A stretch of 64,000 bases of DNA, taken from contig JBAYHI010000003.1 of the NCBI GenBank assembly GCA_041666205.1, positions 13,215 through 77,214 of the forward strand. Reading direction: 5' to 3'. The notes beneath the pieces were generated by a model. It was not told the origin of the DNA. It worked only from the letters and a program-made list of their open reading frames with translations, and did no database searches. The DNA is from Patescibacteria group bacterium (lineage in GTDB: Bacteria > Patescibacteriota > Patescibacteriia > UBA9934). Positions 13,132 to 63,016 of the stretch are shown piece by piece; the stretch's first letter is position 1; every line of letters starts with the position of its first letter. The translations under genes were made by a program, and so were the position numbers.

Positions 13132-13575
13132 GTGTCCGCAGGGGGTTTGGTCTTTCGGAGGACGAAGCGCGGTGTTCAGATTGCCATGCTCGAGGACGCA
13201 TTTGGACATTGGACGTTTCCAAAAGGTCATGTGCGACGTTTGGAAACCTTGCGCGATGCTGCGGAGCGCGAAATTGCAGAAGAGCTCAGTCTCACTGGAT
13301 TGCAATTCCGCGGACAGCTGGGGACGATTGATATTTGGTTCCGTGATCGATTTGTGTGGAAGGGTATGATGATCCACAAATTCATTCACTACTTTTTATT
13401 TGAAGCGCCTGCAGATCAGAAATTGGTCCCGCCCCCGCTCGGGGAGCACGGGGAGCAAATCCTTGCGGTTGCCTGGGTACCGGTTGAGAAAGTCTTGCGC
13501 AGGTCTACGTATCGCGATTTGCAGCCCATCATTGAAAAAGCCATTGGGATTTTGCGTCTTGCACAGCCTCGTTGA
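13132..13575 (+). CDS. NUDIX hydrolase
   Basis: Nudix box 'GHVRRLETLRDAAEREIAEELSL'. ORF is open from TTG at 13033, overlapping ctpA; GTG at 13132 is the first plausible start after the ctpA stop, so the start is uncertain. Confidence 0.7.
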   Translation: MSAGGLVFRRTKRGVQIAMLEDAFGHWTFPKGHVRRLETLRDAAEREIAEELSLTGLQFRGQLGTIDIWFRDRFVWKGMMIHKFIHYFLFEAPADQKLVPPPLGEHGEQILAVAWVPVEKVLRRSTYRDLQPIIEKAIGILRLAQPR

Positions 13576-14090: not shown

Positions 14091-15710
14091 ATGAAGCATC
14101 ATTATTTGTTCGTGGTCGGCGGTGTTATGAGTGGCGTTGGAAAAGGAACGTCGTCAGCAGCGCTTGGGCTCACCATTCAGGCAAAAGGATATTCTGTAAC
14201 GTCCATCAAAATCGATCCGTATGTCAATGTGGACGCGGGCACCATGAATCCGGTGGAGCACGGCGAAGTATTCGTCACCGTTGACGGCGACGAAACCGAT
14301 CAGGATGTGGGAACCTATGAGCGCTATTTGGGGCGAGACATTACGCGCATGAATTACATGACAACTGGTCGTGTGTATCAAACCGTAATTGAAAAAGAAC
14401 GAAACCTCGAATATGGCGGAAAGTGCGTGGAAGTTGTGCCTCATGTACCAGAAGAAGTGATTCGTCGTATTGAACATGCGTCAAAAGAAGCGAAAGCGGA
14501 CGTAACCCTCATTGAGGTTGGGGGAACGGTTGGGGAGTATCAAAATGTATTGTTCTTGGAAGCGGCTCGCATGATGAAAGCGAAAAATCCGGATGCCGTG
14601 CGATTTGTGCTGGTGAGCTATTTGCCCGTTCCGCCATCGATTGGAGAAATGAAAACCAAACCAACGCAATACGCGGTGCGCACCTTAAACGGGGCTGGCA
14701 TTCAACCGGATTTCATTATTGGTCGTTCTACCATGCCAATTGATAAACCTCGCAAGGAAAAAATTGCGCAATTTTGTGCCGTGCCCTGGGAGCACATTAT
14801 CTCAGCACCAGACGCAAAATCGGTTTACCATATCCCCGACATGTTTGAGGATCAAAATTTTGCTTCGCTTGTTCTTAAGAGTTTCAAACTCAAAGTGAAA
14901 GGCAATGACCTATCCGCGTGGAATGAATTCACAGAAAAACTCGAGACGGCCAAGACGCCAGTAAAAATCGGGGTGATTGGGAAATATTTTTCCACAGGCG
15001 ACTTCACGTTGTCGGACGCGTATATTTCCGTTCTCGAAGCCATCAAACATGCTTGCGTTGCCGAAGGCGTGAAACCAGAAATTGCGTGGCTCAATTCCGA
15101 AGAATATGAAGAGCATCCGGAAAAACTCGATGAGTTGAAAACGTTTGACGGGATTCTCATTCCTGGGGGATTTGGATCGCGTGGCGTTGAGGGGAAAATT
15201 GCGGCAATCGAATATGCCCGCAAACACAAGATTCCTTATTTTGGGCTTTGCTATGGCATGCAATGCGCGGTCATAGAATACGCACGCCATGAACTTGGAT
15301 ATACAGACGCCAATACCACGGAAATTAATCCAAAAACGAAATACCCTGTGATTCATTTGATGGATGATCAAGAGAAAAAACTCGAAGACAAACAATACGG
15401 CAATACCATGCGATTGGGGAGCTATCCATGTGTCCTCAAGGCTGACACGATTTCGCGCGCATCCTATGGCGAAGAAAAAATCAGCGAGCGACATCGCCAC
15501 CGCTATGAATTCAATAATGCGTATCGTGCGGAACTTCAAAACGCCGGGCTCGTGCTTGCTGGCACGTCGCCGGATGATCGATTAGTGGAAATAGTTGAAA
15601 TCAAGGATCATCCATTTTTCGTGGGAGTTCAATTCCATCCAGAGTTTCAGAGTCGACCCCTGTTGCCACATCCGTTATTTGTTGCATTCGTGAGGGCAAT
15701 GAAAAAGTGA
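14091..15710 (+). CDS. pyrG: CTP synthase
   Basis: N-terminal 'GGVMSGVGKG' synthetase domain and C-terminal glutamine amidotransferase domain ('GLCYGMQ', 'HRHRYEFN'). Confidence 0.95.
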   Translation: MKHHYLFVVGGVMSGVGKGTSSAALGLTIQAKGYSVTSIKIDPYVNVDAGTMNPVEHGEVFVTVDGDETDQDVGTYERYLGRDITRMNYMTTGRVYQTVIEKERNLEYGGKCVEVVPHVPEEVIRRIEHASKEAKADVTLIEVGGTVGEYQNVLFLEAARMMKAKNPDAVRFVLVSYLPVPPSIGEMKTKPTQYAVRTLNGAGIQPDFIIGRSTMPIDKPRKEKIAQFCAVPWEHIISAPDAKSVYHIPDMFEDQNFASLVLKSFKLKVKGNDLSAWNEFTEKLETAKTPVKIGVIGKYFSTGDFTLSDAYISVLEAIKHACVAEGVKPEIAWLNSEEYEEHPEKLDELKTFDGILIPGGFGSRGVEGKIAAIEYARKHKIPYFGLCYGMQCAVIEYARHELGYTDANTTEINPKTKYPVIHLMDDQEKKLEDKQYGNTMRLGSYPCVLKADTISRASYGEEKISERHRHRYEFNNAYRAELQNAGLVLAGTSPDDRLVEIVEIKDHPFFVGVQFHPEFQSRPLLPHPLFVAFVRAMKK

Positions 15711-15723
15711 TGCCGTACGGGTC

Positions 15724-15750
15724 GGGTTGCCCGACCCGTACGACGACGTA
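15724..15750 (+). repeat. REP-like element: GTAC-led GC-rich hairpin 'gtacgggtcgggttgcccgacccgtac'
   Basis: Member of the hairpin family also seen at 21877, 62965 and 46641. Confidence 0.7.
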
Positions 15751-15763
15751 AATATTCCCGATT

Positions 15764-15792
15764 GCATAATGCAATCGGGAATTATTAATTGG
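15764..15792. promoter_or_regulatory. Perfect 13-bp-arm palindrome 'attcccgattgcat-aa-atgcaatcgggaat', a candidate operator upstream of the giant surface-protein gene
   Basis: Seen directly. Sits 20 nt upstream of an extended -10 (tgtTATACT, 15815..15823) that precedes the ATG at 15832. Confidence 0.4.
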
Positions 15793-15831
15793 GGATAATT
15801 CCGCGGGGGCTCGCGATTTTTTTGTTATACT

Positions 15832-18800
15832 ATGCTCAATATGAATCGCCGATTTTTTGCGCCGAAATATTTTTTCGTCGCACTTTCACTAATTCTTGGA
15901 ATTGGTCTTTTTGCGTACGCGGATTCTGCATCCGCTGCGGCGATTTCGTGGGATAGCGGTGGGGCGAACAACGATTGGGAAACGGTCGAAAACTGGTCGG
16001 GCGATGCCGTGCCAACCGATGCAGATGACGTGACGATTGATTATGCGGAGACGATTGCTATCAATGCAACAACAACGGTGAATTCTTTAACAGTCGGTGG
16101 TACGAACGCAACGGTTCTCAATTTCGATTACGATGCCATTACCGGCGGGGCACTTATTATTGATGCGGGGAACTTGACGGTTGCCGCAAATGGAACGATT
16201 ACGCATACAGGTGGGTCAACAAGCTCGGTTCTTGCCACGGTTTTTATTGATGTACAAACAGGCGACGCAACAATTACAGGAACAGTGAATGTGGACGGAA
16301 AGGGGTATGCAAAAGGGTATGGTACCGGAAAGGGTACGGGCTTTGGTGGAGGTGGTTACGGGGGCGAAGGCAGTGCTGGGAACGGAGGTACGGGAGGCAC
16401 AACATACGGCTCTATTACTGCTCCGACAGATCTTGGTAGCGGAGGATCTGGAAGCTGTAATGGTGGGGCTGGAGCCGGGTCTGTGAAGTTATTAGTTGCT
16501 GGCGGATTAACGGTTGCGGGAAGTATCTCTGCAACAGGTGCAACGTCCAATGAGTGGTGCGCTTCGCCGGGGTCGGGCGGGTCAATTTATCTGGATGCGG
16601 GGACATTTGCTGGAGCCGGGACGGTTGATGTGAATGGTGGAGCATATAGCTATTTTAATGCAGGCCAAGGTGGTGGCGGGCGTCTTGCAATTTATTATGA
16701 TACGAATACCTATTCGGGAACTCCAACCGCATACGGTGGCTATGACGCCTCCAATGGGTACTATGCCGGTGCGGGCACAGTCTATATTAAAGACAATGCC
16801 GATACATACGGAAGTCTCACAGTCGACAACAATAGTCATGACATGACAACCGATGATCGATATTTGGGAAAAACAAATCTTTCTTCAACAGCGACCTATA
16901 AAAATCTTACAATTTCCAACGACGGTCATATTGATTTAATTTCCGGAGCAACCATTACCGTTGATTCAACGTTTACGTGGACAGGTGGAAATGTCACAGA
17001 TAGCGGTGGGGTGCTTGCAACCATAACATCAGGGGATGTTGTTGTACCGGCGGGGTCTTACTTTTATGCAAATACGGCGCGCACTGGAGCAGGGGCGCTC
17101 ACAAGTCTTACGATAAATGGTGTTCTTACACATTCAACAAATAGTACCCTTACATCTTACGTATTGGATGTGGAAACAACAGGCGCAACAGATATTGCTA
17201 CCGGGGGATCGGTCAATGTTGCAGCGCGTGGTCTTCAAAGAGGGTATGGTACTGGCGCGGCTTCGGGTGATCGCAGTGGAGCTGGATATGGAGGAGAAGG
17301 GGGCACAGGATATACATTGGCAGGTGGTGGCACCACATATGGGTCTATTACGGCCCCAACGAGTTTAGGCAGCGGAGGCTTTTCTGGGTGTGCGTCTGGA
17401 AATGGGGGCGGGGCAATTAAGCTTACGGTTGGCGGGACGCTTACAGTGACTGGGAGCATTACCGCCAGCGGTGGAGCGAGTGGGGAATGGTGTGGTGGAG
17501 GAGGATCGGGTGGCTCTATTTATCTAGACACAGGTACAATCACAGGGGCGGGGGCCATTACATCTGCGGGTGGCGCGGCAACAACAGCGGATGCGGGAAA
17601 TGGCGGAGGTGGTCGCATCGCAATCTATTACGATGCGAGTACCTATTCTGGGACTCCAACCGCGTATGGAGGATACTTTTCGACGAATTATTTTGGCGGA
17701 GCTGGCACGATTTATATAAAAGACAATGCCGACACGTATGGAAGTCTTACGGTAGATAATAATAGTCGTGATATAACAACGGATGATCGGTATTATGGGA
17801 AAACAAATCTTTCTTCAACGGCAACCTATAAAAATATTACGATTTCCAATGACGGCCATATTGATTTAATTTCCGGAGCAACCATCACGGTTGATTCAAC
17901 GCTCACGTGGACGGGCGGGAATATTACAGATAGCGGAGGGGTATTGAGCTCGGTAAATTCCGGGGACGTTGTTATCCCTGCGAACGCTCGTTTCCTAGCG
18001 AATACAACGCGGAGTGTAACCTCGCTTACCGTGAATGGCACGATGACACACTCAAAAAATACGACAGTGGAGACACATAAAATAAACTATACAACGAGCG
18101 CAGATGTCACAATCGGTGCCTCTGGGACAATAAATGTAACTCAGCAAGGTTTTATTGGGGGCTATGGGGACGGTCATGGGCACGATGCAGGGGCGTATGG
18201 TTCTGGTGGAGGTTATGGAGGCGTTGGAGGGGATACGGCAGATGGTGGAGATACCGGAGGGATTACGTATGGCTCGGAAACAGCACCGTCCAATCTCGGT
18301 TCGGGCGGGATGGGTGAGGGCGCGTCAAACCTCGGATCATCGGGCGGTGGCGCAGTCAAGCTTTCGGTGGGTGGAAATTTGAGTATTGGTGGAACAATTG
18401 TTGCAAATGGTGGATCAGATTATAGTGGGTGGTTCTTGAATTATGGCGGTGGCTCGGGCGGTTCCATTTGGCTTGCTGTTTCGGGCGCGATATCTGGAGG
18501 AGGGAATGTTTCTGCACAGGGATCAAGCGCACAAAGTGCCGGCGCTGGTGCCGGGGGTGGTGGACGTATCGCGATGACCGCCGCATCAAGTACGTGGTCG
18601 GGTTCGGCGTCTGTTATTGCTGGCACAACCGGCTATGCCGGCGGTGTTGGTACAGTGTATGATAATTACGCTCCAACAGCTGGCAATCCTTCCAATACGT
18701 TTGCAACAGATGGGACGGGCGAGATGCTTGTTTCCCTTGTTGTTGACGATCCCGATGATGAAACACTTTCATTGAAGGTGGAATATTCTATGGACGGAGG

Positions 18801-21800
18801 CGGCACGTGGGAAGACCCAACACTTTCAGAAACGCTAGGGGATACAACCGCAAGTTTTGGGACGCCGGCCACGGAAAACGATAATGCGTATCAAATTTCC
18901 AGTGTTATCACGTCATCGGGTGCAAATACAATTGCGTTCGTGTGGAATTCAAAAACCGATGAGCCAACCGGCGATGTTACCAATGCGAAAATTCGCGTCA
19001 CGGTCAACGACGGCGGAATGGATGGGACGCCAGCAACGAGTACAAATACCACGCTCGATAATGCCGCACCAACCGGTCTTGCCGACTTGGCTGTCACTGC
19101 CTATCCTTCAACCTCACTTTCTCTTTCTTGGACTGCGGCAACATCAGAATCTCACTTTGATCATTACGAACTGTGGTATGGTTCGAATTCATCCGACGTC
19201 AACAATCGTACCGGTTCCGCGACGGAATGGGACAATGCGGATGATGGTGCGCTTGCAACCATGAGTACCACTTCTACCACCATTACGGGTCTTTCACAAA
19301 ACGTCACGTACTACGTAAAGATTTGGGCGGTGGATGATTACACCAATGAAGCAACGCTTGTTGCGATCTCACAAAAAACAAATGGGCTTCCAACCGCCGC
19401 GACCGTCACACCGACGTTTGCCACAGATGGAACTGGAAGAACGACTGTGACGGTCATTATTGACGACGCAGACGATCAAACGTCTTCATTCAAAGTTGAG
19501 TATTCCACAAATGGCGGAGGTGCTTGGGCAGATCCAACACTTTCCACAACCGCGGAGGATTTGTCTGGAACGTTTGGTACTCCAGCGCTCAATAATGCGT
19601 CTACCTACCAAATTAGCAATGTCACAACCGCGTCGGGCGCGAATACGATTTCGTTCGTTTGGAACTCTGGAACGGATGTTCCCACTGCAGATGTTTCAAA
19701 CGCTCTTATTCGAATTACTCCATACGACGGTGCAGAGGCGGGGTCGGGTGTGAATTCCGCGAGTTTCTCCATGGATAATGCGGACCCTTCTGGCATGGCA
19801 GGTCTTGGTGTTGGTTCATATGCGTCCGATGAAGTTGTGATGACCTGGACTGCAGTTTCTTCTGAAACCAATTTTGATCACTACGAACTCTGGTATGGGA
19901 CTAATTCCTCGGATGTAGATAACCGCACAGGGACGGCAACAGAATGGGATAATTCCGACGATGCCACGCTCGCTACCATGACAACGGCCACGACAACAAT
20001 TCCAAGTCTTGTGGCAAATACTACGTATTACATCAAGGTTTGGGCTGTTGACGATTACGGCAATGAAGCAACGCTTGCCTCAAGTACACAAAAAACAAAC
20101 GCTATTGTGACAGCCACTACACCGACCGCGACGGTTGCAACAGACGGCACGGGTGAGGTGACGGTTGTCACGACCATTGATGACGCCGACGACGAAGACT
20201 CCCGCTTCTTGGTGGAATATTCCATCGATGGCGGTGGCACCTATGCCAAAGCGACGCTTTCGGAAACGGATGTAGACACCACGGCCACCTATGGGGATCC
20301 GGATGTTGCCAATGTAAATTCCTACCAAGTTGGAAATGCCTCCGGCTACGTTACAACTGCCTCTGGGGCAAATGCGGTAACCTTCATTTGGAATTCGCAT
20401 ACCGACGTGCCAACGGCCGATGTTACAAATGCAAAAATTCGTGTCACACCAAATGATCAAATTGAAGACGGCACCGCAATGCCATCTGCTAATTTCACGC
20501 TAGATAATGCACATCCCCAAGCACTTGCAGATTTTGTGGTGAGCGCAAAGAGTGCAACGTCTGTTACACTTACCTGGACAGCAGCAACAGATACACACTT
20601 TTCACACTATGAAATTTGGTATGGCGAAGATTCCGGAGATGTTGATGGACGGACCGGTACTGCAACGGAATGGGATAATTCCGACGATGCAGCACTCGCA
20701 ACTGCAACAACCGCAACAACACGTATCCTTCCTCTGGAGTCAGCAACAACCTATTTCTTCAAGATTTTTGCTGTCGACGATTATACAAACGAAACAACGC
20801 AGGCAGCGACTTCTGTAAAAACCTCTTCAAGAGGGAGCACTGCGTCGCGACCGACGCCAGCACCGGATCTTACCAACCTCACCGTCTCCCAAGATGATGG
20901 CACAACCACCGCGTCGCTCATGGAAGAAAAATGGACATCTGTGAATTGGCTCTCGCTTGGCGCGGTGCCAAATGTGAATGTGTATTACTCGGTTGACGAA
21001 GGAGTAAATTGGCTCAAGTTTGTTGGCCCGATTGCCAATCGCGACAATATTGGATTTGTGATGCCAGCAGGACTGGGCACCACCTTTATGCTTCGCGTCA
21101 TTGGCACCGACCTTGCCGTCAATCTCGATACTGAGACAACAGGCATCCTCACCCTCATTCCTCGTCCAATGACAGTTGAACCCGAGGCTCCGTCGGTTGT
21201 TTACAAGCCGGTTGAACCTATCTATCCCACTGATCCTTGGCTTGGCGTACCAGACCTTAACCCGGAGTGGCCACAAGAAACCGCACCGTTTATCCCTCCG
21301 GTAAAAGAAACGCCAACCGTCATTCCAGGTCAGTCTCCAATTATTACCTACACCGAACCAGAAGCCATTTCTCCGGTAACGGGACTCGAAGAACCGGTGT
21401 CAGACGTGCAGCCTGGCGACTATATTAAGAGCCCAAGTTTCCCAACCGTTTACTATGTGACGGAAGATTTGGCACGCAAACCATTTGCTGATGCACAAAC
21501 CTATTTCACCTACGAGGCAAGTTTTGATCGTATCAAAGTTGTGACAGACGCAACGCTTACGCTCCTCAATCTTTCCGGCCCCATGCTTCCAAAGCCATCC
21601 ACCGTGCTTGTAAAAATTCAAAGTGATCCAAAGGTTTACGTAGTGTCAGAAAATCCAGAGAATCCTTATCGCCCAATTCTCCGTTGGCTCTCAAGTGAAG
21701 AGCTTGCTACCACGCTGTATGGCGCCCATTGGTCAGATTATGTGATTGACGTGCCGGTGACGCTCTTTGCACGGTTTGAGATCGGGAATGCCATTGGGCT

Positions 21801-21864
21801 CCTTGATTTCCAAAGTGCGTTTGAAAAATCAGCCATGAAATTGCGGAGCGCAATTGTTCGATAA
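15832..21864 (+). CDS. Giant secreted/surface repeat protein (2010 aa): signal peptide, three Gly-rich beta-helix-like repeats, three Fn3/Ig-like repeats, C-terminal domain
   Basis: N-terminal signal 'FFVALSLILGIGLFAYADSASA'. Tandem DNA repeats with about 940-bp period (16.27-18.65 kb) and about 720-bp period (18.66-20.82 kb), with high nucleotide identity between units. Confidence 0.85.
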   Translation: MLNMNRRFFAPKYFFVALSLILGIGLFAYADSASAAAISWDSGGANNDWETVENWSGDAVPTDADDVTIDYAETIAINATTTVNSLTVGGTNATVLNFDYDAITGGALIIDAGNLTVAANGTITHTGGSTSSVLATVFIDVQTGDATITGTVNVDGKGYAKGYGTGKGTGFGGGGYGGEGSAGNGGTGGTTYGSITAPTDLGSGGSGSCNGGAGAGSVKLLVAGGLTVAGSISATGATSNEWCASPGSGGSIYLDAGTFAGAGTVDVNGGAYSYFNAGQGGGGRLAIYYDTNTYSGTPTAYGGYDASNGYYAGAGTVYIKDNADTYGSLTVDNNSHDMTTDDRYLGKTNLSSTATYKNLTISNDGHIDLISGATITVDSTFTWTGGNVTDSGGVLATITSGDVVVPAGSYFYANTARTGAGALTSLTINGVLTHSTNSTLTSYVLDVETTGATDIATGGSVNVAARGLQRGYGTGAASGDRSGAGYGGEGGTGYTLAGGGTTYGSITAPTSLGSGGFSGCASGNGGGAIKLTVGGTLTVTGSITASGGASGEWCGGGGSGGSIYLDTGTITGAGAITSAGGAATTADAGNGGGGRIAIYYDASTYSGTPTAYGGYFSTNYFGGAGTIYIKDNADTYGSLTVDNNSRDITTDDRYYGKTNLSSTATYKNITISNDGHIDLISGATITVDSTLTWTGGNITDSGGVLSSVNSGDVVIPANARFLANTTRSVTSLTVNGTMTHSKNTTVETHKINYTTSADVTIGASGTINVTQQGFIGGYGDGHGHDAGAYGSGGGYGGVGGDTADGGDTGGITYGSETAPSNLGSGGMGEGASNLGSSGGGAVKLSVGGNLSIGGTIVANGGSDYSGWFLNYGGGSGGSIWLAVSGAISGGGNVSAQGSSAQSAGAGAGGGGRIAMTAASSTWSGSASVIAGTTGYAGGVGTVYDNYAPTAGNPSNTFATDGTGEMLVSLVVDDPDDETLSLKVEYSMDGGGTWEDPTLSETLGDTTASFGTPATENDNAYQISSVITSSGANTIAFVWNSKTDEPTGDVTNAKIRVTVNDGGMDGTPATSTNTTLDNAAPTGLADLAVTAYPSTSLSLSWTAATSESHFDHYELWYGSNSSDVNNRTGSATEWDNADDGALATMSTTSTTITGLSQNVTYYVKIWAVDDYTNEATLVAISQKTNGLPTAATVTPTFATDGTGRTTVTVIIDDADDQTSSFKVEYSTNGGGAWADPTLSTTAEDLSGTFGTPALNNASTYQISNVTTASGANTISFVWNSGTDVPTADVSNALIRITPYDGAEAGSGVNSASFSMDNADPSGMAGLGVGSYASDEVVMTWTAVSSETNFDHYELWYGTNSSDVDNRTGTATEWDNSDDATLATMTTATTTIPSLVANTTYYIKVWAVDDYGNEATLASSTQKTNAIVTATTPTATVATDGTGEVTVVTTIDDADDEDSRFLVEYSIDGGGTYAKATLSETDVDTTATYGDPDVANVNSYQVGNASGYVTTASGANAVTFIWNSHTDVPTADVTNAKIRVTPNDQIEDGTAMPSANFTLDNAHPQALADFVVSAKSATSVTLTWTAATDTHFSHYEIWYGEDSGDVDGRTGTATEWDNSDDAALATATTATTRILPLESATTYFFKIFAVDDYTNETTQAATSVKTSSRGSTASRPTPAPDLTNLTVSQDDGTTTASLMEEKWTSVNWLSLGAVPNVNVYYSVDEGVNWLKFVGPIANRDNIGFVMPAGLGTTFMLRVIGTDLAVNLDTETTGILTLIPRPMTVEPEAPSVVYKPVEPIYPTDPWLGVPDLNPEWPQETAPFIPPVKETPTVIPGQSPIITYTEPEAISPVTGLEEPVSDVQPGDYIKSPSFPTVYYVTEDLARKPFADAQTYFTYEASFDRIKVVTDATLTLLNLSGPMLPKPSTVLVKIQSDPKVYVVSENPENPYRPILRWLSSEELATTLYGAHWSDYVIDVPVTLFARFEIGNAIGLLDFQSAFEKSAMKLRSAIVR

Positions 21865-21876
21865 TTGCGTGATATT

Positions 21877-21924
21877 GTAGGGGTCGGGTTCCCCGACCCG
21901 TTGGGCGGGGAAACCCCGCCCGTA
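21877..21924 (+). repeat. REP-like pair: 'gtaggggtcgggttccccgacccg' plus 'gggcggggaaaccccgccc'
   Basis: Near-identical pair recurs at 62965..63016. Confidence 0.75.
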
Positions 21925-21940
21925 TGGCGTACGATAAAAT

Positions 21941-26045: not shown

Positions 26046-26050
26046 TCGCC

Positions 26051-26074
26051 GTAGGGACGTTGCGTGCAACGTCC
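26051..26074 (+). repeat. REP-like element 'gtagggacgttgcgtgcaacgtcc' preceded by 'cgcc'
   Basis: The 'cgccgtagg' leader is shared with 62961. Arms 'agggacgttgc/gcaacgtccct' recur at 63029..63086. Confidence 0.6.
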
Positions 26075-26129
26075 ATTCGTTAAAAAGAAGCGCCGGGAAG
26101 CGAGTGGCGCTTCTCGGCGAAGGGGAGGG

Positions 26130-26519
26130 CTAGGCAGCGATGGGGCAGAGAACAAGCGCGCCCGCGCACCAGGAATCGACCTCGGAAAACCAGGCTCTTC
26201 TCCAGGCTTTTTCCGGGTCTTTCTCTTGTTCATCGTGAACGAAACAGAGGAAATCGTCTTGACCATTCCTCATATTAGTCACGAGAATGTGAACGCCACG
26301 AAAAGGCGGTTCTGCTTTCGGCTTGCCCTTTGTTGGCTTTGCCTTGAGACCTCTTTCGAGAGCGTCGATGTCTCCTCTTGAGGCCACGGGGTCACGAATT
26401 CGTTTGAAGATCTCGGGTGCGGGGATCGTCTTTTCCTCAGGCTTGAGGAAACCGACCGCCACGAACTCGCGACCATCGTCGAGCATAAACGAAATACGGG
26501 TCTCGGAATGGGGGGTCAT
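26130..26519 (-). CDS. Hypothetical protein (GC about 58%), SD-led, immediately downstream of the RAYT transposase
   Basis: ATG at 26519 preceded by AGGAG with 5-nt spacing. The overlapping + strand ORF looks like antisense. Confidence 0.5.
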   Translation of the reverse strand: MTPHSETRISFMLDDGREFVAVGFLKPEEKTIPAPEIFKRIRDPVASRGDIDALERGLKAKPTKGKPKAEPPFRGVHILVTNMRNGQDDFLCFVHDEQEKDPEKAWRRAWFSEVDSWCAGALVLCPIAA

Positions 26520-26577
26520 GTGAACTCCTATCTGTGCAGAAGGGTTTTTCTAACATATCAGTCCGGCAAAGATAAGG

Positions 26578-27099
26578 TCAAGGTTTGCGGTGATTATGTG
26601 GGTTTTGCTGGATGTATTCGCGGACCCGGTCGAGATCACGCGGGGAACGAATGACGTGTTCGTAATAACCCCGTTGCCAAAAGGATTTTTTGAATTTCGG
26701 CCAATACCCGGCATACACGCCTCGAATATATTCATTTGTGGTTTTTGTTTTGAAAAAATTAATCATATCCGCCAATGATTTCGATTCTGTAGGGGCGGCC
26801 CAATGTGGCCGCCCGTTTGCAATTTGAATGATGCCATGGAAATGATCGGGCATAATGATAAATTCATCCAATCGCGTATTTGCAAAATGATCCGGGATTT
26901 GATTCCAAATGTTTTGAATCATATCCCTGGCCTGGGATAAACGCATTTCTTGCGGGCGGCCACATTGGGCCGCCCCTACGGTAAATAATTTCTGGCGACG
27001 ATACAAACAAATCGTCACAAAATAATATCCCTCCTGCGCATAATCATATTGCGGCAAACGGATCGATCTCCGAACAGGCAAATGCGAATTTCCTAACAT
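26578..27099 (-). mobile_element. IS200/IS605-family Y1 tyrosine transposase (REP-associated tyrosine transposase, RAYT-like)
   Basis: HuH motif 'MPDHFHGIIQI' and catalytic-Tyr region 'FWQRGYYEHVIRSPRDLDRVREYIQQNP'. N-terminal 'RRSIRLPQYDYAQEGYYFVTIC' is typical of this family. Carries two copies of a GTAG hairpin in inverted orientation inside the CDS. Confidence 0.85.
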
Positions 27100-27223
27100 A
27101 AATCCCCAAAATTATTTGGGGAGGTTTCATTTATTCATATTCGATTTTTTGGTTCCTGTCAATCCATTTATCCCCCAATGATCAAAATATGGCTTCAGGC
27201 CTTGATTTTCTTTCTAGAAAATG

Positions 27224-27232
27224 GTATAACGT
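27224..27232 (+). promoter_or_regulatory. Extended -10 promoter (TGgTATAAC) for tRNA-Lys
   Basis: Lies 25 nt upstream of the tRNA 5' end. Same TGnTATAAC form precedes tRNA-Gly (34589..34597). Confidence 0.45.
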
Positions 27233-27257
27233 CCCATGTTTCCAAGCCAAATATCAC

Positions 27258-27333
27258 GCGCTGGTAGCTCAGTCGGTAGAGCGAGGGCCTTTTAAGCCCG
27301 CGGTCGTGGGTTCGAATCCCACCCGGCGCACCA
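27258..27333 (+). tRNA. tRNA-Lys (anticodon TTT)
   Basis: Cloverleaf folds: acceptor gcgctgg/ccggcgc, anticodon loop cTTTTaa, T-arm gtgggTTCGAATcccac, 3' CCA encoded. Confidence 0.9.
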
Positions 27334-27424
27334 AAAATACCTGGATTTATTCCGGGTATTTTTGTATCTAAAAAAGAAGAACCCCACGCCGTGAGGTTCT
27401 CCTCTCGGGGTGGGGTAGGGATGT

Positions 27425-27727
27425 TCAGTAGGGCCACTCGTTCGGGAAGCCCAGCTCATCGAAGAGGCCTTGGATCACGTATCGAAGCCCGTCATCCATA
27501 TTGTTGAACGGGCCGAAGGATCCGAACATGGCTCGCGCATCACGATAGCTGTGAAACGCCAGAGTTCCGAAGGGCAACTCCAATATGATGGGGCGAGCCA
27601 GTGGGCTACAAGGCTCTCCTTCAACCATGAGTTGCTCATTGACTATTACTCGCGCCATGCACTCAATCTTTTGCATGCCTGTTATTGTTGCGATCGAGAA
27701 AGAGAACCTTTTTTCGGCGTATGCCAT
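27425..27727 (-). CDS. Hypothetical small protein
   Basis: 100-aa ORF; GC-rich hairpin terminators lie just after its 3' end (27335..27420). No motif recognised. Confidence 0.4.
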   Translation of the reverse strand: MAYAEKRFSFSIATITGMQKIECMARVIVNEQLMVEGEPCSPLARPIILELPFGTLAFHSYRDARAMFGSFGPFNNMDDGLRYVIQGLFDELGFPNEWPY

Positions 27728-44759: not shown

Positions 44760-45884
44760 ATGAAAACATACGGGATCGATGTGAATGCTTTGACCCGGGC
44801 GCGTAAAACTGGAACAGAGCGCTATGTTTTCGAGCTTTTAAAAGAAATGATAAAAACACCGCTTCAAAATGAAGAGCGGGTTGTTTTGTATTCAAGCGCG
44901 CTAATCCCAGAGCTTGGCACGCTCCCAAATGGATGGATCCTCAAGATTCTCGATTGGAAGCTCAAAAAAGCGTGGACTCACGCTCGACTTAGCTGGGAAC
45001 TTCTTACACGAACACCAGATGTATTTTTTAGTCCCGCGCATGAGATTCCGCTTTTTCACCGACGAACAAAATTTGTATCCACCGTGCATGATGTTGCATT
45101 TCGGATTGTGCCTGAGGTTTATTCCAAGAAGAGCGTGAAGCGGCAGGAATGGGCGGTTGCTCGTGCACTCAAGCTCGACCAGAAAATCATCACGATTTCT
45201 GAAACGTCCAAAAACGATTTGGTGAATCTGTATCATGTGGCACCAGAGCGTATTGCCATCACGCCTCTGGCCGTGCATCCGGAAGCATTTGCAACGGTCG
45301 AGGCCGATAAACAAAACGTTTTGGATAAATATCGCCTCAATGCCGGTCTTTATTTTGTAACGGTTGGGCGCGTTGAGAAAAAGAAAAATATTCCGTTTCT
45401 TTTGAGCACATTTGAAGCGTTTAAGCGTGATCGTGGCATTGGCGACCCATATCAACTGGTGCTTGCCGGCACATTTGGGGAAGATGCAAAGGAAATTCAA
45501 GCACAAATCGAAAAATTAGTATGCAAAGATGTTGTGCGCGTTTTGGGATATGTTCCCGACGCAGAATTGCCAGGGCTTCTGGCTGGTGCCGTCGCTTACG
45601 TTTTTCCAACACGTTACGAAGGATTTGGCATTCCAGCACTCGAGGCAATGGCTTCGCGCATTCCACTTATCGCGTCCGATATTCCGGCGCTTCGTGAAGT
45701 TGCGGGGGATGCAGCCCTTTTTGCAGGAGTTGAGGATGCTGGGGCGTGGATTGAAGCGATGCAAAAAATTGTCGATAATGAATCGCTTCGCGCGGATTTG
45801 GTACTAAAGGGTGCACAGCGTTTGCATGACTTTTCTTGGGTAGAGACGGCAAAAAAGACGTGGGAGGTGTTGCGAAGTGTGTAG
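44760..45884 (+). CDS. Glycosyltransferase family 4
   Basis: C-terminal 'EGFGIPALEAMASRIPLIASD' E-x7-E motif. ATG at 44760, 2 nt after the mreB stop. Confidence 0.8.
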   Translation: MKTYGIDVNALTRARKTGTERYVFELLKEMIKTPLQNEERVVLYSSALIPELGTLPNGWILKILDWKLKKAWTHARLSWELLTRTPDVFFSPAHEIPLFHRRTKFVSTVHDVAFRIVPEVYSKKSVKRQEWAVARALKLDQKIITISETSKNDLVNLYHVAPERIAITPLAVHPEAFATVEADKQNVLDKYRLNAGLYFVTVGRVEKKKNIPFLLSTFEAFKRDRGIGDPYQLVLAGTFGEDAKEIQAQIEKLVCKDVVRVLGYVPDAELPGLLAGAVAYVFPTRYEGFGIPALEAMASRIPLIASDIPALREVAGDAALFAGVEDAGAWIEAMQKIVDNESLRADLVLKGAQRLHDFSWVETAKKTWEVLRSV

Positions 45885-46656
45885 TATGCGCGATCTCGTT
45901 CACGATTTAGTTCGACTTGGATTTTCTGAAAAAGAAGCCGAAGGCTATGTGGCGCTTTTATCTTTAGGGAAAGCACCGGTGCAGGTGATTGCGCAGAAAA
46001 CCGGAATCAATCGGGCGAGTGTTTACCATGTGCTCGATGCCTTGGTGAAAAAAGGATTAGCAATCGTGTCAGTCGAGCATGGAGAAAAAATGTATTCAGC
46101 CGAACCGCCGGCTCGTTTGATTACGCATTTGAGCATTCAAATGCAAGAGCTCGAAGAACGTCGACGCCTGGCAGACGGGCTCATGATGCGTTTGCAGGTT
46201 TTTTACAATACAAGCGGAACCAAGCCAAAGATTTCGTATATTGAGTCGGTGGATGGACTTCGAATGCTTCAGCGGGAATATGAGGAAATGGGGGAGGACA
46301 TGATTCAAATTGTTGGCTACGATGCATTTTTGGCGCTTCGCGATACGTCAGCATCTAAGATTCACCAAAAAGAATTGGCGCGTCAGCATCGACGTGTACG
46401 ATCAATTATTGTGACAGACCGCAAGGTTGAGTTCCCAGATTTTCCGGAAATGGAAATTGTGGTGATTCCAAAAGGCGTTGTTGAAATTGATGGGGAAATG
46501 ACGGTTTGTGGCGACCGGCTTGTGATGTTTTCGTATGCGTCCGGGATTATCGCCGTTGAAATCAAATCAAAAACAATTGCAAATACAGCAAAAGCAACGC
46601 TTGAGCTCGCTTGGAAAGAGGCAAAACGCTTCGATTCTGTACGGGCAGGTCTGTGA
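45877..46656 (+). CDS. TrmB-family transcriptional regulator (HTH + sugar-binding-like domain)
   Basis: 'LGFSEKEAEGYVALLSLGKAPVQVIAQKTGINRASVYHVLDALVKKGL' is a TrmB HTH. GTG start at 45877 with GGAGGT 9 nt upstream; alternative ATG at 45886. The 3' end is overlapped by a REP hairpin. Confidence 0.7.
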   Translation: MCSMRDLVHDLVRLGFSEKEAEGYVALLSLGKAPVQVIAQKTGINRASVYHVLDALVKKGLAIVSVEHGEKMYSAEPPARLITHLSIQMQELEERRRLADGLMMRLQVFYNTSGTKPKISYIESVDGLRMLQREYEEMGEDMIQIVGYDAFLALRDTSASKIHQKELARQHRRVRSIIVTDRKVEFPDFPEMEIVVIPKGVVEIDGEMTVCGDRLVMFSYASGIIAVEIKSKTIANTAKATLELAWKEAKRFDSVRAGL

Positions 46657-46694
46657 CCTGCCCTTTTCGTATGGGCTTGACATGCCAAGCCCAT
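46641..46694 (+). repeat. REP-like hairpin pair: 'gtacgggcaggtctgtgacctgccc' plus 'atgggcttgacatgccaagcccat'
   Basis: The 5' flank 'tcgattctgta' is identical to the flank of the REP copy inside the RAYT gene (26781..26791). The stem gggcaggtc/gacctgccc recurs at 50561. Confidence 0.7.
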
Positions 46695-46795
46695 ACGGCT
46701 CGACACTGAAACAAAAATCCGCCCCCACGATGTGAAATCATGAATGCGGATTTTCCCCCGAACCCTGCGCGGTACGCATGGTTCGGAGACGAGAA

Positions 46796-49938: not shown

Positions 49939-50376
49939 TTACTCGCTGGTAAGTTGGAATCCATTGGCGCGAAATCGTTCGCGTATGGCTTCCAGTTGCT
50001 CCGGGTATTTCTCCTTCATTTCCCGAAGCAGACGCTGTGCCGCCTCGTTGTAGGTTTCCATCCGAACCGTGTCTGGCGGTTCGAGGTGGATCCACAAGGG
50101 GACGGAGTCGAGATAAAAAGCGATTTCCGATAGCAGATAAGCTCTGCTGTCATATCGGGCACGAATACTCATCTCCTTGATTGAAATGCCCTTAGCTTTT
50201 TCTGGAAGCTGAATGGCAACCAATATGAAGATGATTCCCCATGCTCGACGTTCGGACATTGAAGTTTGTTTGAAGATCTCGACAAGGGTATCGATCATGA
50301 GCTTCTGAACCACGGATGCCTGAGGTGACACGAGTTTTTCAAGCTTTGTGCCCTGCATCATAATGAAATGAAGCAT
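49939..50376 (-). CDS. Hypothetical protein (146 aa)
   Basis: First ATG of a longer ORF (49939..50766). The upstream extension runs through a REP hairpin cluster and starts at TTG, so it is trimmed. Confidence 0.45.
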   Translation of the reverse strand: MLHFIMMQGTKLEKLVSPQASVVQKLMIDTLVEIFKQTSMSERRAWGIIFILVAIQLPEKAKGISIKEMSIRARYDSRAYLLSEIAFYLDSVPLWIHLEPPDTVRMETYNEAAQRLLREMKEKYPEQLEAIRERFRANGFQLTSE

Positions 50377-50560
50377 TCTAGCACGAAGATTAAAATCGCG
50401 TCTTTTCTGGAACCTCTCGAGGTCCCGTTGTATACGTTTTTTTATATCCAAGACGGTTTTTTCCTTTGAAAAAGAACCGGGAATAATAGCAGAAAAATAG
50501 CGATTTGTCAAGCCATACCAAGGCAATTTTTGGCGAAAATTGCGTGAATTGTGACGAATT

Positions 50561-50703
50561 GGGCAGGTCGCAGACCTGCCCGTACGGAATCGAATCCGCG
50601 TAGGGGCGGCCCAATGTGGCCGCCCCTTGGTAATATGATTCGAATCGAGGATGAAGCAATCAAATCGAGAATGACGGGCAGACGCTTGGGTCTGCCCGTA
50701 CAG
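50561..50703. repeat. BIME-like cluster of three GC-rich hairpins
   Basis: The three hairpins are 'gggcaggtcgcagacctgcccgtacgg', 'gtaggggcggcccaatgtggccgcccc' and 'gacgggcagacgcttgggtctgcccgtacag'. The middle hairpin is identical over 26 nt to the two copies inside the RAYT gene. It is flanked by inverted 'gaatcgaatcc / gattcgaatcg'. Confidence 0.75.
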
Positions 50704-50921
50704 ATTTGGATCTGCTGGAGTGTGGCCACGCAATTCCTGTCCTTCCGCCGGATTCCTCTTTGACAATGCTCGAGCCGGCGAATCGAAAAAAACAGGCTAC
50801 CGAACACAGCCCGACCGGAAAAACATGCCTGCCCTGGACGGTTTGGTTCTTCAGATGTTTTTCCGGGCTGACCAATTGCGAGGTCAGGATGGGCTATAAG
50901 AAAACAGACCCTTTCTTTTCC

Positions 50922-59374: not shown

Positions 59375-61189
59375 ATGCACGTACATATTTGGCGATGGTT
59401 TTTTTGGTCTGGCATCCTCTTTATTGTCTTGGGAGGCGTGTTTGCGATTGGTCTTACGCTTGGGCTTATTTGGAAAAATGAGTTTGAGCTTCCGGTGCGC
59501 GAAGTAGGACCCCTGTATTCCTCGGGATTGCAAACGAAAGATTTTTTTGATGGTGCGTATGCAGCTGCGGAGCCAGGTGATTCGGTTTCGGTTGTGAGCG
59601 CAGTATCAGCGCATCATCTTTTGGTTGCAAAAGAGATTGCTTCGCTTTTTGAAACGATTGGTTCGGGGAGTGTCAAAACCGTCATTGTGGTGAGCCCGAA
59701 TCATTTTGATGCTGGTGTTCACCCCGCGCAGGTTTCATTCGGAAATTGGGAAACGCCGTATGGCATGGTGGAATCTTCCACGAAAGCGCGTGTGCTTGCA
59801 AATCGTGGTGGGATCGTTTGGAATGAAGAAAAAGCATTTGAACAAGAGCATGGTATTGGAGCACTCACGCCATTTGTCGCGCATTCATTTCCAAACGCGA
59901 AAATCATTCCGCTCGTGATTGATGATTCGCTCACCGCGGATGAAGCAAAGGTTGTTGCGGGCGAACTCTACGACGTTGCGCCCGACGCCATTCTGATTGC
60001 GTCCTCTGACATGTCGCACTATTTGCCAAGTTTGGCGTCGGATTACCACGACGAGGTGACGGAGAATTGCTTGGCGCGTGGAATTGCGTGTTTAGAAAAT
60101 TTGAATTTGGAAGTGGATACAAATGCCGTGCTTCAGGTTTTGGGTGAGTGGAATCGTTTGCAGGGCACGCAAGTGTGGACGCAAACCTATCACGGCAATT
60201 CGCTTGCCATGGGCATTGGCGACGCAGCAGAAGAAAATACAAGCCATATTCTGGGGTACTTTACAAAAGGTGCGCCGGTGACGTCACCCTCGGCTTCCAT
60301 TCATTTCGTTGGTGACATTATGCTTGATCGTGGTGTGCGAAAAGCAATCGATGCAGCCGGTGGCGACCCGAATTTTCCCTGGCAGCACGTGATGCGCTTT
60401 TTGCAAGGATCAGATTTGCGCGTTGGCAACCTGGAAGGAACCGTGAACGAACAACAAAGCACCTATACCTACGATCCGCCATTTCGATTTGTCTTTTCGC
60501 CAAGCTATGTGGAAGCAATGAAACCATTCATCGACGTGGTATCGCTTGCCAATAATCACGTCTGGGATGTGGGCAGTGCTGGGGAAACTGAAACGCATAC
60601 CTGGCTGGATTCCATGGGCATTCCGTGGTTTGCTTCGTATAAATCGCCAGTGCCACGCTACGACCAAGATATTAACGGAATCCCGATTACGCTCATTGGC
60701 TATCATTCATTCCAGCCCGACGAGGATTTACTGCTGGAGACGATTGCAACCGCACAAAGTGATGGGCGATTTATCATCGTCATGCCACATTGGGGCGTTG
60801 AATATGAACATCAACCGCAAACCGCACAACGGGCACTGGCTCAGAAAATGATCAACGCTGGCGCTGACCTTATTATGGCCGGTCACGCACATGTGCCAGA
60901 GGGGATTGAAGTCATCGACGGCGTGCCAGTTCTTTACTCGCTTGGGAATTTCGTTTTTGATCAACAGATTCCGGAAACCTGGTCCGCACTCACGGCTGGA
61001 GTGATTATCACGGATGAAAAAATCGAAATTAACCTCCTGCCAGTGGACGTCAGTTTGAAAGCGCCAAAGCCGATGGAGGGCGATAAAGCCACCGCACTCC
61101 TCAAACACCTTGCGGAGTATTCCGACGACGTGCTAAAAGAACAAATAATTAATGGCAAACTAATTTTTGACCGATATGAAACAAACTAA
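59375..61189 (+). CDS. Fusion protein: N-terminal TM + Memo-like (AmmeMemoRadiSam system protein B family) domain + C-terminal CapA/PGA_cap metallophosphatase-like domain
   Basis: Memo-like 'VVSPNHF...HGIG...SSDMSHY'. CapA-like 'SLANNHVWDVG...GHAHVPEGIEVIDGVPVLYSLGNFVFDQ'. Confidence 0.6.
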   Translation: MHVHIWRWFFWSGILFIVLGGVFAIGLTLGLIWKNEFELPVREVGPLYSSGLQTKDFFDGAYAAAEPGDSVSVVSAVSAHHLLVAKEIASLFETIGSGSVKTVIVVSPNHFDAGVHPAQVSFGNWETPYGMVESSTKARVLANRGGIVWNEEKAFEQEHGIGALTPFVAHSFPNAKIIPLVIDDSLTADEAKVVAGELYDVAPDAILIASSDMSHYLPSLASDYHDEVTENCLARGIACLENLNLEVDTNAVLQVLGEWNRLQGTQVWTQTYHGNSLAMGIGDAAEENTSHILGYFTKGAPVTSPSASIHFVGDIMLDRGVRKAIDAAGGDPNFPWQHVMRFLQGSDLRVGNLEGTVNEQQSTYTYDPPFRFVFSPSYVEAMKPFIDVVSLANNHVWDVGSAGETETHTWLDSMGIPWFASYKSPVPRYDQDINGIPITLIGYHSFQPDEDLLLETIATAQSDGRFIIVMPHWGVEYEHQPQTAQRALAQKMINAGADLIMAGHAHVPEGIEVIDGVPVLYSLGNFVFDQQIPETWSALTAGVIITDEKIEINLLPVDVSLKAPKPMEGDKATALLKHLAEYSDDVLKEQIINGKLIFDRYETN

Positions 61190-62960
61190 GGTCGAGCCCG
61201 TCGACATGACGGAGCAAGTACCCGTGCCCGAAGTTACAGCTCCCAAATTCAATAAAACGCTTCTGATTGCAATTGCAGCCCCGGTGGTTGTCTTGCTCGT
61301 GATTGCGTCATTCATCAGTGGCTTGCTGGTTTCGCGACTGATTGCCAATGAGACAGAAGTTGAGGATGAGGTTATTGATGGCTCTGATGAAACTGATACG
61401 GAAGAAGTATTTTTAGATGTGGAGTTTTTACCGATTGCGGCTCAGGAAAAAGTTGAATTAAATCCAGGACTCGTTGCAACATTTTCAAAACCTGATTCCA
61501 CATTTTCAGTTGATGAGAGTTCTGCCTATCTTTTGGGAGTTGTTCAGGGTGGAACCTATGATGGGTATGAGCTCGTACAAAATATTTTTGGCTCTTTAGG
61601 AATGGGGTGGGCGTATGATTATTATTATGTTCTTGAAAACCCAAACGATCGCATAGATGCAGTGCTTCTTAGCCGTTATATGAGTTATATGGGAATGTGG
61701 GAATTCCCGGTGAGAGAGTCTGATACAACAAATGGGGATACGTTTAGTACAACAATTACAGATGGAGAGCTTGCTATTCCTGAATTTGAAATGTCGTCAA
61801 CAATTACAGATGTTAATGAAATTTTGTTTGATTATGCAGGATTGTTGAACCGAATTGATTTTGAAGGTGTAGATGCGAATAAAGCGCCAAAGATTGGAAG
61901 CTCATGGTCGCAACTTGCGGACGGAACCGTTGTGTATGAAATGGTCGAGGGGACTTCAACTGTGTATGAGGATAGTTTTTATACGATTCGACCCGACAAT
62001 CGGTACGCCATTTATGAAGTGAATGTCCCATTCTGGACGGCTGGTCCGGAAGGAGATTTGAATGTGCCAAATACACCAAATATCATTTGGGAGGATGGAT
62101 CGAGAAATACGGATGAATATCTCCGCGGAGATCAATCCAGATGTGGCATGAGCTCCATTACAAACGTGGCGTCAGATATCACAGATAGCGATTTGATTTT
62201 TGCTGGAACAATCGAAAGTGAACGCGTCTTTACACCAAAAACGCTAACAGCTGATCGTTATAAGAGTAGTATCGCATCGTATAATTCTTTTTCAGGTGAA
62301 GAAGAAGTTACGCTCGAAGAATTGCAAGAAATACATCCGTATTTTTACTGGCAGGATTCACTTGGTCGTTGGATTGAATTTACGAATGTGAATTTTCTTC
62401 CGGCTGCAGAATGTGGCAAGCCGGTTATTTACCTCTACCCAGAAGAAACCACGCAGGTGAATGTACAATTGGCGCCGGTGGGAGGATTTTCCTACACCGA
62501 GCCGGCATATGGTATGGGATGGAATGTGGTGGCAGAGCCAAATGGCGAGCTCACAAATCTATCCGATGGAAAAACATATCCATATCTTTTCTGGGAAGGT
62601 AAAGGTGGACTTTACCAGGCACCAGAGAAATATTGGGTGATTGCAAAAGCTGATGTAGAAGGATTTTTGACTTCAACGCTTGCGCAACTTGGGCTTAATG
62701 AAAAAGAAATTGCAGACTTCAATGAGTTCTGGCTTCCACGCATGCAAAATGCGCCGTACTACAAGATTGGATTCCATGGAACGAGTGTTATGAACGCTCT
62801 GGCGCCAATGCAAATAACGCCTGCGCCAGATTCAGTACTGCGAATCCTCATGGATTATCAAGAGCTCGATACGGCAATCCCATCGAACCCGCCAACGCTT
62901 CCAAAAACATTTGAGCGAACAGGATTTACGGTTGTGGAATGGGGAGGGGTGATTCAATAG
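61176..62960 (+). CDS. Hypothetical membrane-anchored extracytoplasmic protein (595 aa)
   Basis: TM helix at residues about 30-55, acidic linker and a large soluble domain. ATG at 61176; the track start at 61167 is TTG. Confidence 0.5.
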   Translation: MKQTKVEPVDMTEQVPVPEVTAPKFNKTLLIAIAAPVVVLLVIASFISGLLVSRLIANETEVEDEVIDGSDETDTEEVFLDVEFLPIAAQEKVELNPGLVATFSKPDSTFSVDESSAYLLGVVQGGTYDGYELVQNIFGSLGMGWAYDYYYVLENPNDRIDAVLLSRYMSYMGMWEFPVRESDTTNGDTFSTTITDGELAIPEFEMSSTITDVNEILFDYAGLLNRIDFEGVDANKAPKIGSSWSQLADGTVVYEMVEGTSTVYEDSFYTIRPDNRYAIYEVNVPFWTAGPEGDLNVPNTPNIIWEDGSRNTDEYLRGDQSRCGMSSITNVASDITDSDLIFAGTIESERVFTPKTLTADRYKSSIASYNSFSGEEEVTLEELQEIHPYFYWQDSLGRWIEFTNVNFLPAAECGKPVIYLYPEETTQVNVQLAPVGGFSYTEPAYGMGWNVVAEPNGELTNLSDGKTYPYLFWEGKGGLYQAPEKYWVIAKADVEGFLTSTLAQLGLNEKEIADFNEFWLPRMQNAPYYKIGFHGTSVMNALAPMQITPAPDSVLRILMDYQELDTAIPSNPPTLPKTFERTGFTVVEWGGVIQ

Positions 62961-62964
62961 CGCC

Positions 62965-63016
62965 GTAGGGGTCGGGTTCCCCGACCCGGCAACGGGCGAG
63001 GAAACCTCGCCCGTAC
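62965..63016 (+). repeat. REP-like pair 'gtaggggtcgggttccccgacccg' plus 'gggcgaggaaacctcgccc'
   Basis: Near-identical to 21877..21924. Preceded by the 'cgcc' leader as at 26047. Confidence 0.75.

Follow-up and report, generated by a model that had tools for sequence, protein, structure and literature searches.

The DNA analyzed here (the window) is a stretch of 64,000 nucleotides (positions 13,215 to 77,214 of contig JBAYHI010000003.1, assembly GCA_041666205.1) from a Patescibacteria group bacterium. ORF mapping and translation located in it a single open reading frame (ORF) resembling genes for REP-associated tyrosine transposases (RAYT, also TnpAREP; REP, repetitive extragenic palindrome). 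This gene, of the HUH-Y1 type, spans 26578..27099 on the minus strand and encodes 173 amino acids. Its coding sequence holds two copies of a 26-nt GTAG-tagged hairpin, GTAGGGGCGGCCCAATGTGGCCGCCC, in inverted orientation and both in frame.

The unit consists of GTAG, an 8-bp GC stem and a 6-nt loop, and folds as single-stranded DNA (ssDNA) with -11.2 kcal/mol (z -3.6). The stem has the form GGGC...GCCC, with three consecutive G-C pairs at its foot. Exactly three copies are present in the window, the two in the gene at 26954-26979(-) and 26789-26814(+), and one extragenic copy at 50600-50625(+), identical to both and placed in the middle of a cluster of three hairpins. There is no fourth site in the window, even when 3 mismatches are allowed, and 100 dinucleotide-preserving shuffles of the window gave 0 matches. 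The three copies are alike over exactly 26 nt and their flanks are unrelated. GC content is 77% in the 26-mer, 41% in the RAYT gene minus the REPs and 49% in the window. An earlier note on this DNA had given 50600..50626 for the extragenic copy and had placed it in an intergenic hairpin cluster; copy and cluster are as described there, but the unit ends at 50625, the extra base extending the stem.

The copy at 26954..26979 (site 1) is in sense orientation to the gene, is read as GTA GGG GCG GCC CAA TGT GGC CGC CC(G) and encodes V41-GAAQCGRP-49. The one at 26789..26814 (site 2) is antisense, is read as GGG CGG CCA CAT TGG GCC GCC CCT AC(A) and encodes G96-RPHWAAPT-104. Exact matching and codon reading agree with the earlier note, which had reported an inverted, in-frame pair of 26-nt GTAG palindromes encoding GRPHWAAP and GAAQCGRP. 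The copies are separated by 139 nt of conserved coding sequence and, as one of them lies 5' of the HuH motif, the catalytic core is enclosed by an inverted pair of identical units. In the transcript of 26780-26990 (minus strand) they are predicted to pair end to end, with -97.7 kcal/mol vs. -58.5 for shuffles (z -8.3).

Identity and fold of the RAYT protein

The protein contains the HuH motif (H86-F-H88, within MPDHFHGII) and a Tyr region starting at W141-QRGYYEHVIR (FWQRGYYEHVIR, with WQRGYYEH at residues 141-148). It matches the Pfam family Y1_Tnp (PF01797) with 28.4 bits, over the cutoff of 23, and its top NCBIfam family is REP_Tyr_transpos (NF047646; 66.3 bits, E 2.7e-18, curated equivalog cutoff 80). 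The NCBIfam model for IS200 (transpos_IS200) gave 30.3 bits, far under its cutoff of 55, which leaves the protein outside IS200 by that model. A protein search retrieved 5563 homologues; apart from an identical protein annotated in a metagenome-assembled genome (MAG) of a "Patescibacteria group bacterium", the closest share only about 50% identity and belong to many lineages. The 22 residues invariant in the homologue alignment (A1) are all kept, among them HuH and the Tyr region, and so is W141, which is nearly invariant. Six residues follow the conserved N166-P167 before the C-terminus, without a C-terminal extension.

The AlphaFold (AF2) model has a predicted local distance difference test score (pLDDT) of 82.7 and is confident except in two loops. 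Its best Foldseek match in the PDB is 4ER8 (4er8_A), E. coli TnpAREP bound to a REP hairpin (E 1.1e-7, template modelling scores 0.59/0.62), followed at lower rank by the TnpA proteins of IS608 and ISDra2. A sequence search of the PDB gave only a marginal match, also to 4ER8 (E 0.023). Translation, the Y1_Tnp match, the best NCBIfam family and the 4ER8-like fold all bear out the earlier description of a 173-aa ORF of RAYT type with HuH and catalytic Tyr motifs.

Both hairpin-encoded segments are found at the only two hypervariable positions of alignment A1. Site 1 follows the conserved LF(G) that ends beta1, and most homologues have a shorter GxIxxGxM stretch there; site 2 is directly after HuH and is empty in the shortest homologues. 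Comparison with homologues had been proposed in the earlier note, and by it both segments are insertions at hypervariable loop positions. The AF2 model puts site 1 in an excursion or loop between beta1 and alphaA (pLDDT <50 at residues 44-47) and site 2 (96-104) in the beta3-alphaC loop, between the strand at 86-93 and the helix at 109-129, so that both insertions are predicted to lie in surface loops. Each in-gene unit would thus add nine residues, predicted to be flexible, at positions that tolerate extra residues. In the model of Quentin et al. (2018, PMC6006769) the beta3-alphaC variable region is away from the catalytic and DNA-binding surface. The orientations and frames that survive would be the stop-free ones only, namely sense GTA-GGG-GCx, giving VGA.., and antisense, giving ..APT or ..PL.

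In-gene REPs in homologous genes

The protein-level survey covered the best 120 of the 5563 homologues. Peptides that translate a GTAG hairpin are present in 84 of these 120, either VGAxxCxxP (sense) or GxPxxxAPT or GxHxGxPL (two antisense frames). At site 1, a REP-type peptide occurs in 12 of the 120, scattered on a tree computed by neighbour joining from the alignment minus its variable regions. Its presence there requires about nine changes, which indicates that site 1 was gained or lost repeatedly; P0111, for example, has the peptide and P0035, at a distance of 0.18, is without it.

DNA was read at nine homologue loci, from source organisms with 37-61% GC. Canonical in-gene hairpins, one or more per locus, are present in eight of them; the ninth has decayed copies only. 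A canonical 26-nt pair was found within each gene at L168, L170, L171, L173, L176, L177 and L178, the sense copy always preceding the antisense one, so that the GTAG feet point outward. At L180, two identical copies bracket the core as in the window, with the antisense copy translated in a different frame (GGHMGPPL). Of the in-gene copies of L179, one is intact and the other mutated; those of L175 are all decayed. The stems of the two in-gene REPs differ from each other in most homologues.

Across eight of the loci there are 17 hairpins in 5.0 kb of RAYT genes vs. 10 in 127 kb of flanks, an enrichment of about 43-fold. REPs flank the RAYT gene at L168, L176, L177 and L179, and at L176 and L177 some units less than 300 bp from the gene have the same sequence as those inside it. 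The sole canonical REPs in 13-21 kb at L170, L171, L173 and L178 are those in the RAYT gene.

The earlier note had argued that the same peptide segments, if encoded by homologues without palindromic DNA, would reduce the hairpins to a coding coincidence. The sole DNA-level case of the same peptide is P0078 (L179), which encodes GRPHWAAPT through the same palindrome with one substitution. Other homologues have different peptides, from different yet perfectly paired GTAG hairpins. When 18 in-gene units (13 distinct) were aligned by their stems, all 8 stem pairs were 100% paired in the 13 distinct REPs, and substitutions at the 3 variable pairs always affect both sides. Covariation scores 0.446 vs. 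0.125 for shuffles, and controls with slid positions drop to 32-50% paired.

Distribution of the repeat

The stem with a free loop was found at no fewer than 120 genome loci (at least L001-L120) in many phyla, e.g. Acidobacteriota, Chloroflexota, deltaproteobacterial lineages, Cyanobacteria and Saccharibacteria. Among the matches listed, the loop is mostly C-NNN-GT, inverted doublets 24-105 nt apart are frequent, and 1 of 144 stem matches in genome contigs lies in a RAYT ORF. These free-loop matches are ordinary dispersed REPs. The exact 26-mer is present in 47 unrelated metagenome contigs (L121-L167), with unrelated flanks and sharp 26-nt boundaries; none of these 47 loci is similar to the window and none is in a RAYT ORF. 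Taken together, the 47 contigs and the genome loci indicate that the same REP, or close variants of it, is common to different phyla. At L122 (around 129-154), the 26-mer is directly followed by a second copy that has no GTAG (ggaggggcggcccaatgtggccgcc), so that the hairpin is partially duplicated in tandem.

Comparison with known systems

In-frame REPs within tnpAREP genes are the hallmark of subclass 2.4 in the TnpAY1 classification of Quentin, Siguier, Chandler and Fichant (2018, BMC Genomics 19:475; PMC6006769). The earlier note described REPs as normally located beside the gene and not within it, which does not apply to the subfamily concerned. Like the subclass 2.4 proteins, the RAYT protein of the window has an HUH-Y1 core without a C-terminal extension domain and a hypervariable beta3-alphaC region made of in-frame REP sequence (here site 2, residues 96-104). 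Its REPs have the three G-C pairs at the stem foot and the same 26-nt architecture; Table S1 of PMC6006769 lists units of GTAG, 8-bp stem and 6-nt loop under 2.4, e.g. GTAGGGGCAGACCGGCGCGTCTGCCC. The REP is patchily distributed across phyla, as is subclass 2.4, for which Quentin et al. describe a horizontal-transfer-like pattern. On these shared features the protein is assigned to the subclass 2.4 type. Unlike the published members, it is hosted by a MAG of the Patescibacteria (Candidate Phyla Radiation), a phylum with 0 occurrences in the main text of PMC6006769, and our literature search found no paper linking RAYTs with Patescibacteria. The locus is also set apart from the subclass 2.4 description in that its two identical copies lie on either side of the HuH core and the gene has no REP right next to it. 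Term searches of Nunvar 2010 and Bertels 2017 found no mention of in-gene REPs.

The E. coli TnpAREP/RAYT (4ER8; Messing et al. 2012, PMC3479197; Nunvar et al. 2010, PMC2817692) shares the fold, the HuH and Tyr motifs and hairpins tagged with GT[AG]G. However, identity is only about 19%, the E. coli REPs are longer, bulged and flank the gene, and the E. coli enzyme belongs to subclass 2.2. The TnpA proteins of IS200/IS605 elements (IS608, ISDra2) have the HUH-Y1 fold and the logic of recognizing a hairpin plus a tetranucleotide in common with the RAYT protein, but the window has one copy only, and no same-strand left- and right-end hairpins around the gene.

Di Nocera et al. (2013, PMC3733652) compiled a catalogue of intragenic REPs in other genes and considered such insertions as maybe neutral in flexible linkers or loops. 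That catalogue and the Rickettsia palindromic elements resemble the present case in that short GTAG palindromes, single or dimeric, are inserted in frame and add about 9-30 residues. In contrast, the hosts in PMC3733652 are mainly replication and repair genes with sites that differ by gene; in the present case the gene of the REP enzyme itself receives the units, at sites used repeatedly throughout the family. REPINs (Bertels and Rainey 2011, PMC3116915) are two inverted REPs pairing into one long hairpin, and the extragenic doublets at 21877-21925 and 62965-63016 fit this description. The in-gene pair can also fold as one long hairpin, but with its 139-nt coding spacer and single occurrence in the window it differs from a compact non-coding mobile dimer.

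Origin and possible role of the in-gene REPs

Our preferred interpretation, with a probability of roughly 0.78, is that the gene encodes a RAYT/TnpAREP (HUH-Y1) of the subclass 2.4 kind that carries its own REPs in frame in two permissive loops. The cognate substrates would be the 26-nt units, each a GTAG "foot" with a GGGC-led 8-bp hairpin and a 6-nt loop, scattered after gene ends. Two such units would have become part of the enzyme's own reading frame, at the tip of the beta1-alphaA excursion and in the beta3-alphaC loop after HuH. By analogy with E. coli TnpAREP (4ER8), the protein presumably binds and cleaves these hairpins. The in-gene copies may stem from insertion or conversion of REPs, which the enzyme, acting in cis around the gene that encodes it, possibly promoted, and they are probably largely neutral passengers, a view favoured by the decayed copies at L175 and L179 and by the homologues without in-gene REPs.

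Several points weigh against this interpretation. Both the 43-fold in-gene enrichment and the strict outward orientation exceed what simple neutral tolerance predicts and leave room for function. No canonical REP is immediately adjacent to the RAYT gene, the nearest REP-like hairpin being 504 bp away, past an orphan ORF. The REP_Tyr_transpos score is under its equivalog cutoff, and subclass membership was assigned by resemblance. Furthermore, the REP census covers 64 kb of the source genome, and neither scan of the contig collections recovered the source organism.

One could suppose that the in-gene REPs are no passengers and form an outward-facing built-in dimer, both a seed that travels with the enzyme and a self-limiting switch based on a long hairpin, in ssDNA or mRNA, that spans the HuH-coding core. 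This would explain the in-gene density, the constant orientation and the 26-mer common to different phyla, and we consider it a possibility, albeit a small one. Selection for autoregulation as such appears unlikely. Under that hypothesis, the hairpins in ssDNA let the enzyme bind or nick its own gene, or a 27-bp duplex around the HuH core of the mRNA lowers translation or offers a target to a double-strand RNase, and a potentially genotoxic nuclease is kept low. The pairing of the two copies in the transcript (z -8.3) agrees with such a device, as do the constant orientation and strong in-gene enrichment across lineages and the perfect maintenance of hairpin pairing while peptides vary. Nevertheless, the different stems of the two REPs in most homologues allow no long duplex, about 30% of the top homologues have no recognizable REP peptide and some copies are decayed, and recent copying from the genomic pool of REPs could explain hairpin integrity equally well. 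It is improbable, on the present evidence, that the in-gene pair serves as a "seed" dimer, i.e. a substrate kept in the ORF to ensure co-inheritance or co-transfer, with the extragenic REPs copied from this master. The four loci at which canonical REPs are confined to the RAYT gene (L170, L171, L173 and L178) would be expected under such a scheme, and RAYT genes of different organisms share identical REP sequences; the wide occurrence of the 26-mer (47 metagenome contigs) and of its stem (at least 120 genome loci of many phyla) and the horizontal-transfer-like pattern of subclass 2.4 (PMC6006769) are in keeping with it. Yet the pair in the window is split by 139 nt of essential coding sequence and is no compact mobile dimer, the extragenic REPs of the window mostly have other stems, many homologues lack in-gene REPs, and the present data are compatible with copying in either direction.

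That the gene is a decaying or inactive relic colonized by REPs might be suggested by the NCBIfam score under cutoff and by the replacement of part of the conserved GxIxxGxM stretch at site 1; we rejected this idea as very improbable, the ORF being full length with its 22 invariant A1 residues intact, the model confident outside the two loops, and the same protein sequence present on contigs from independent sources. The palindromes could also be a by-product of conserved peptide motifs, given that similar peptides (VGAxxCxxP, GxPxxxAPT) recur in homologues. However, these peptides are two or three open frames of one DNA element, and the antisense frame varies (GRPHWAAPT here vs. GGHMGPPL in L180). 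The positions are absent from the shortest homologues, and the unit is identical to an intergenic copy and retains sharp 26-nt boundaries in 47 unrelated contexts. Stem co-variation is perfect while amino acids change. Compensation in the stems despite varying peptides places the constraint on the DNA hairpin rather than on the peptide, which disposes of coding coincidence; we regard that explanation as effectively refuted.

The in-gene arrangement of REPs was already described in 2018 for subclass 2.4 (PMC6006769), and this locus is a further example of it. Modestly new are the Patescibacteria host, the site 1 copy by which the HuH core comes to lie within the pair, and the occurrence of the identical 26-mer in different phyla. 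RAYT systems with in-gene REPs are thereby extended to the reduced genomes of Patescibacteria, and a second recurrent insertion site, upstream of HuH, is documented. If orientation and in-gene enrichment reflect function, the system would be a compact model of the way in which a domesticated transposase remains tied to its repeats.

REP-like hairpins elsewhere in the window

The window was scanned for GTA[G/C/T]GG directly followed by a hairpin, two palindromic hairpins being counted on both strands. This gave 14 matches in 64 kb, vs. a mean of about 0.35 in 20 shuffles. Twelve of the 14 are outside the RAYT gene and represent about 10 extragenic elements, all of them extragenic or touching last codons only, and the two RAYT units are the only ones within gene bodies of the window. 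Position after gene ends is usual for REPs (Di Nocera et al. 2013, PMC3733652). The stem sequences of the extragenic REPs of the window mostly differ from that of the in-gene unit. The earlier note had held that an absence of further genomic copies would argue against its reading. Further copies do exist: extragenic DNA of the window has one that is identical and some twelve related GTAG/GTAC hairpins, and the exact 26-mer is present in the 47 metagenome contigs.

The intergenic cluster at 50561-50701 comprises three GTA[GC]-tagged hairpins, with the identical copy flanked by GTACGGGCAGGTCTGCGACCTGCCC at 50561..50585(-) and by GTACGGGCAGACCCAAGCGTCTGCCC at 50676..50701(-), the latter of 26 nt with an 8-bp stem and a 6-nt loop. 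Two REP-like hairpins are found at 46639..46696, at the end of ORF 45877..46656 and beyond it, the first overlapping the last codons and the stop. An inverted doublet at 62965..63016 is just past the stop of ORF 61167..62960. The unit nearest the RAYT gene, GTAGGGACGTTGCGTGCAACGTCC at 26051..26074(+), is 6 nt past the stop of a murG-like ORF. A double-footed hairpin with GTAC on both sides occupies 15715..15741, 5 nt past the stop of ORF 14091..15710, and a doublet of a GTAG-GGGTCGGG hairpin followed by a GGGCGGGG hairpin and GTAT occupies 21877..21925, just past the stop of ORF 15832..21864. The latter ORF, of 2010 aa on the plus strand, is therefore bracketed by REP-like elements, the double-footed hairpin upstream and the doublet right after its stop.

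Translated REPs also have consequences for annotation, as the REP peptides (VGAxxCxxP, GxPxxxAPT, GxHxGxPL) inflate and diversify proteins and create spurious N- or C-terminal ORF extensions. An example is the 275-aa ORF at 49939..50766(-), which has GRPHWAAPT near its N-terminus because it reads through the intergenic REP cluster; the gene itself is almost certainly shorter, its 5' extension being spurious and an example of a REP-derived annotation artefact. Similarly, the called RAYT ORF of P0114 (L178, 2738-3379) starts with a translated REP doublet, an N-terminal extension VGADLCVCP...GAHTGAPL whose source is probably a REP pair that flanks the gene upstream and was included in the gene call.

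Neighbourhood of the RAYT gene and its homologues

A tRNA-Lys(ttt) gene is encoded on the opposite strand 158 bp upstream of the RAYT start codon, the RAYT gene being on its 5' side. An Rfam scan of 25900-27500 found nothing besides this tRNA, and there is no REP between it and the RAYT gene. The region just upstream of the start codon (27099) contains an 8-bp AT/GC hairpin, TCCCCAAATAATTTTGGGGA, at 27103-27122(-), which ends 3 nt before the ATG and is terminator-like on both strands in a consensus scan. As it holds the only Shine-Dalgarno-like GGGGA, it could occlude ribosome binding.

Downstream, a 129-aa ORF at 26130..26519(-) has AGGAG 6 nt before its ATG and a GC content of 54%. The earlier note had pointed to this Shine-Dalgarno-led, high-GC gene directly downstream; it is present as described, but has no detectable link to the RAYT/REP system. 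It is without a Pfam or NCBIfam match and, among 5.8 billion proteins, matches only itself. The possibility that it is a conserved partner of the RAYT was rejected, since this ORF is an orphan and the gene neighbours of homologous RAYT genes vary from locus to locus.

Two homologues have neighbours of some note. P0101 (L171, 10001-10615) is located within a type I restriction-modification cluster, between Fic and HsdS (Methylase_S), with HsdM upstream and HsdR downstream. On the Patescibacteria contig L173, bAvd is beside a reverse transcriptase (RVT_1) at 15327-16700, about 8 kb from the RAYT homologue P0023, an arrangement that looks like a diversity-generating-retroelement module.

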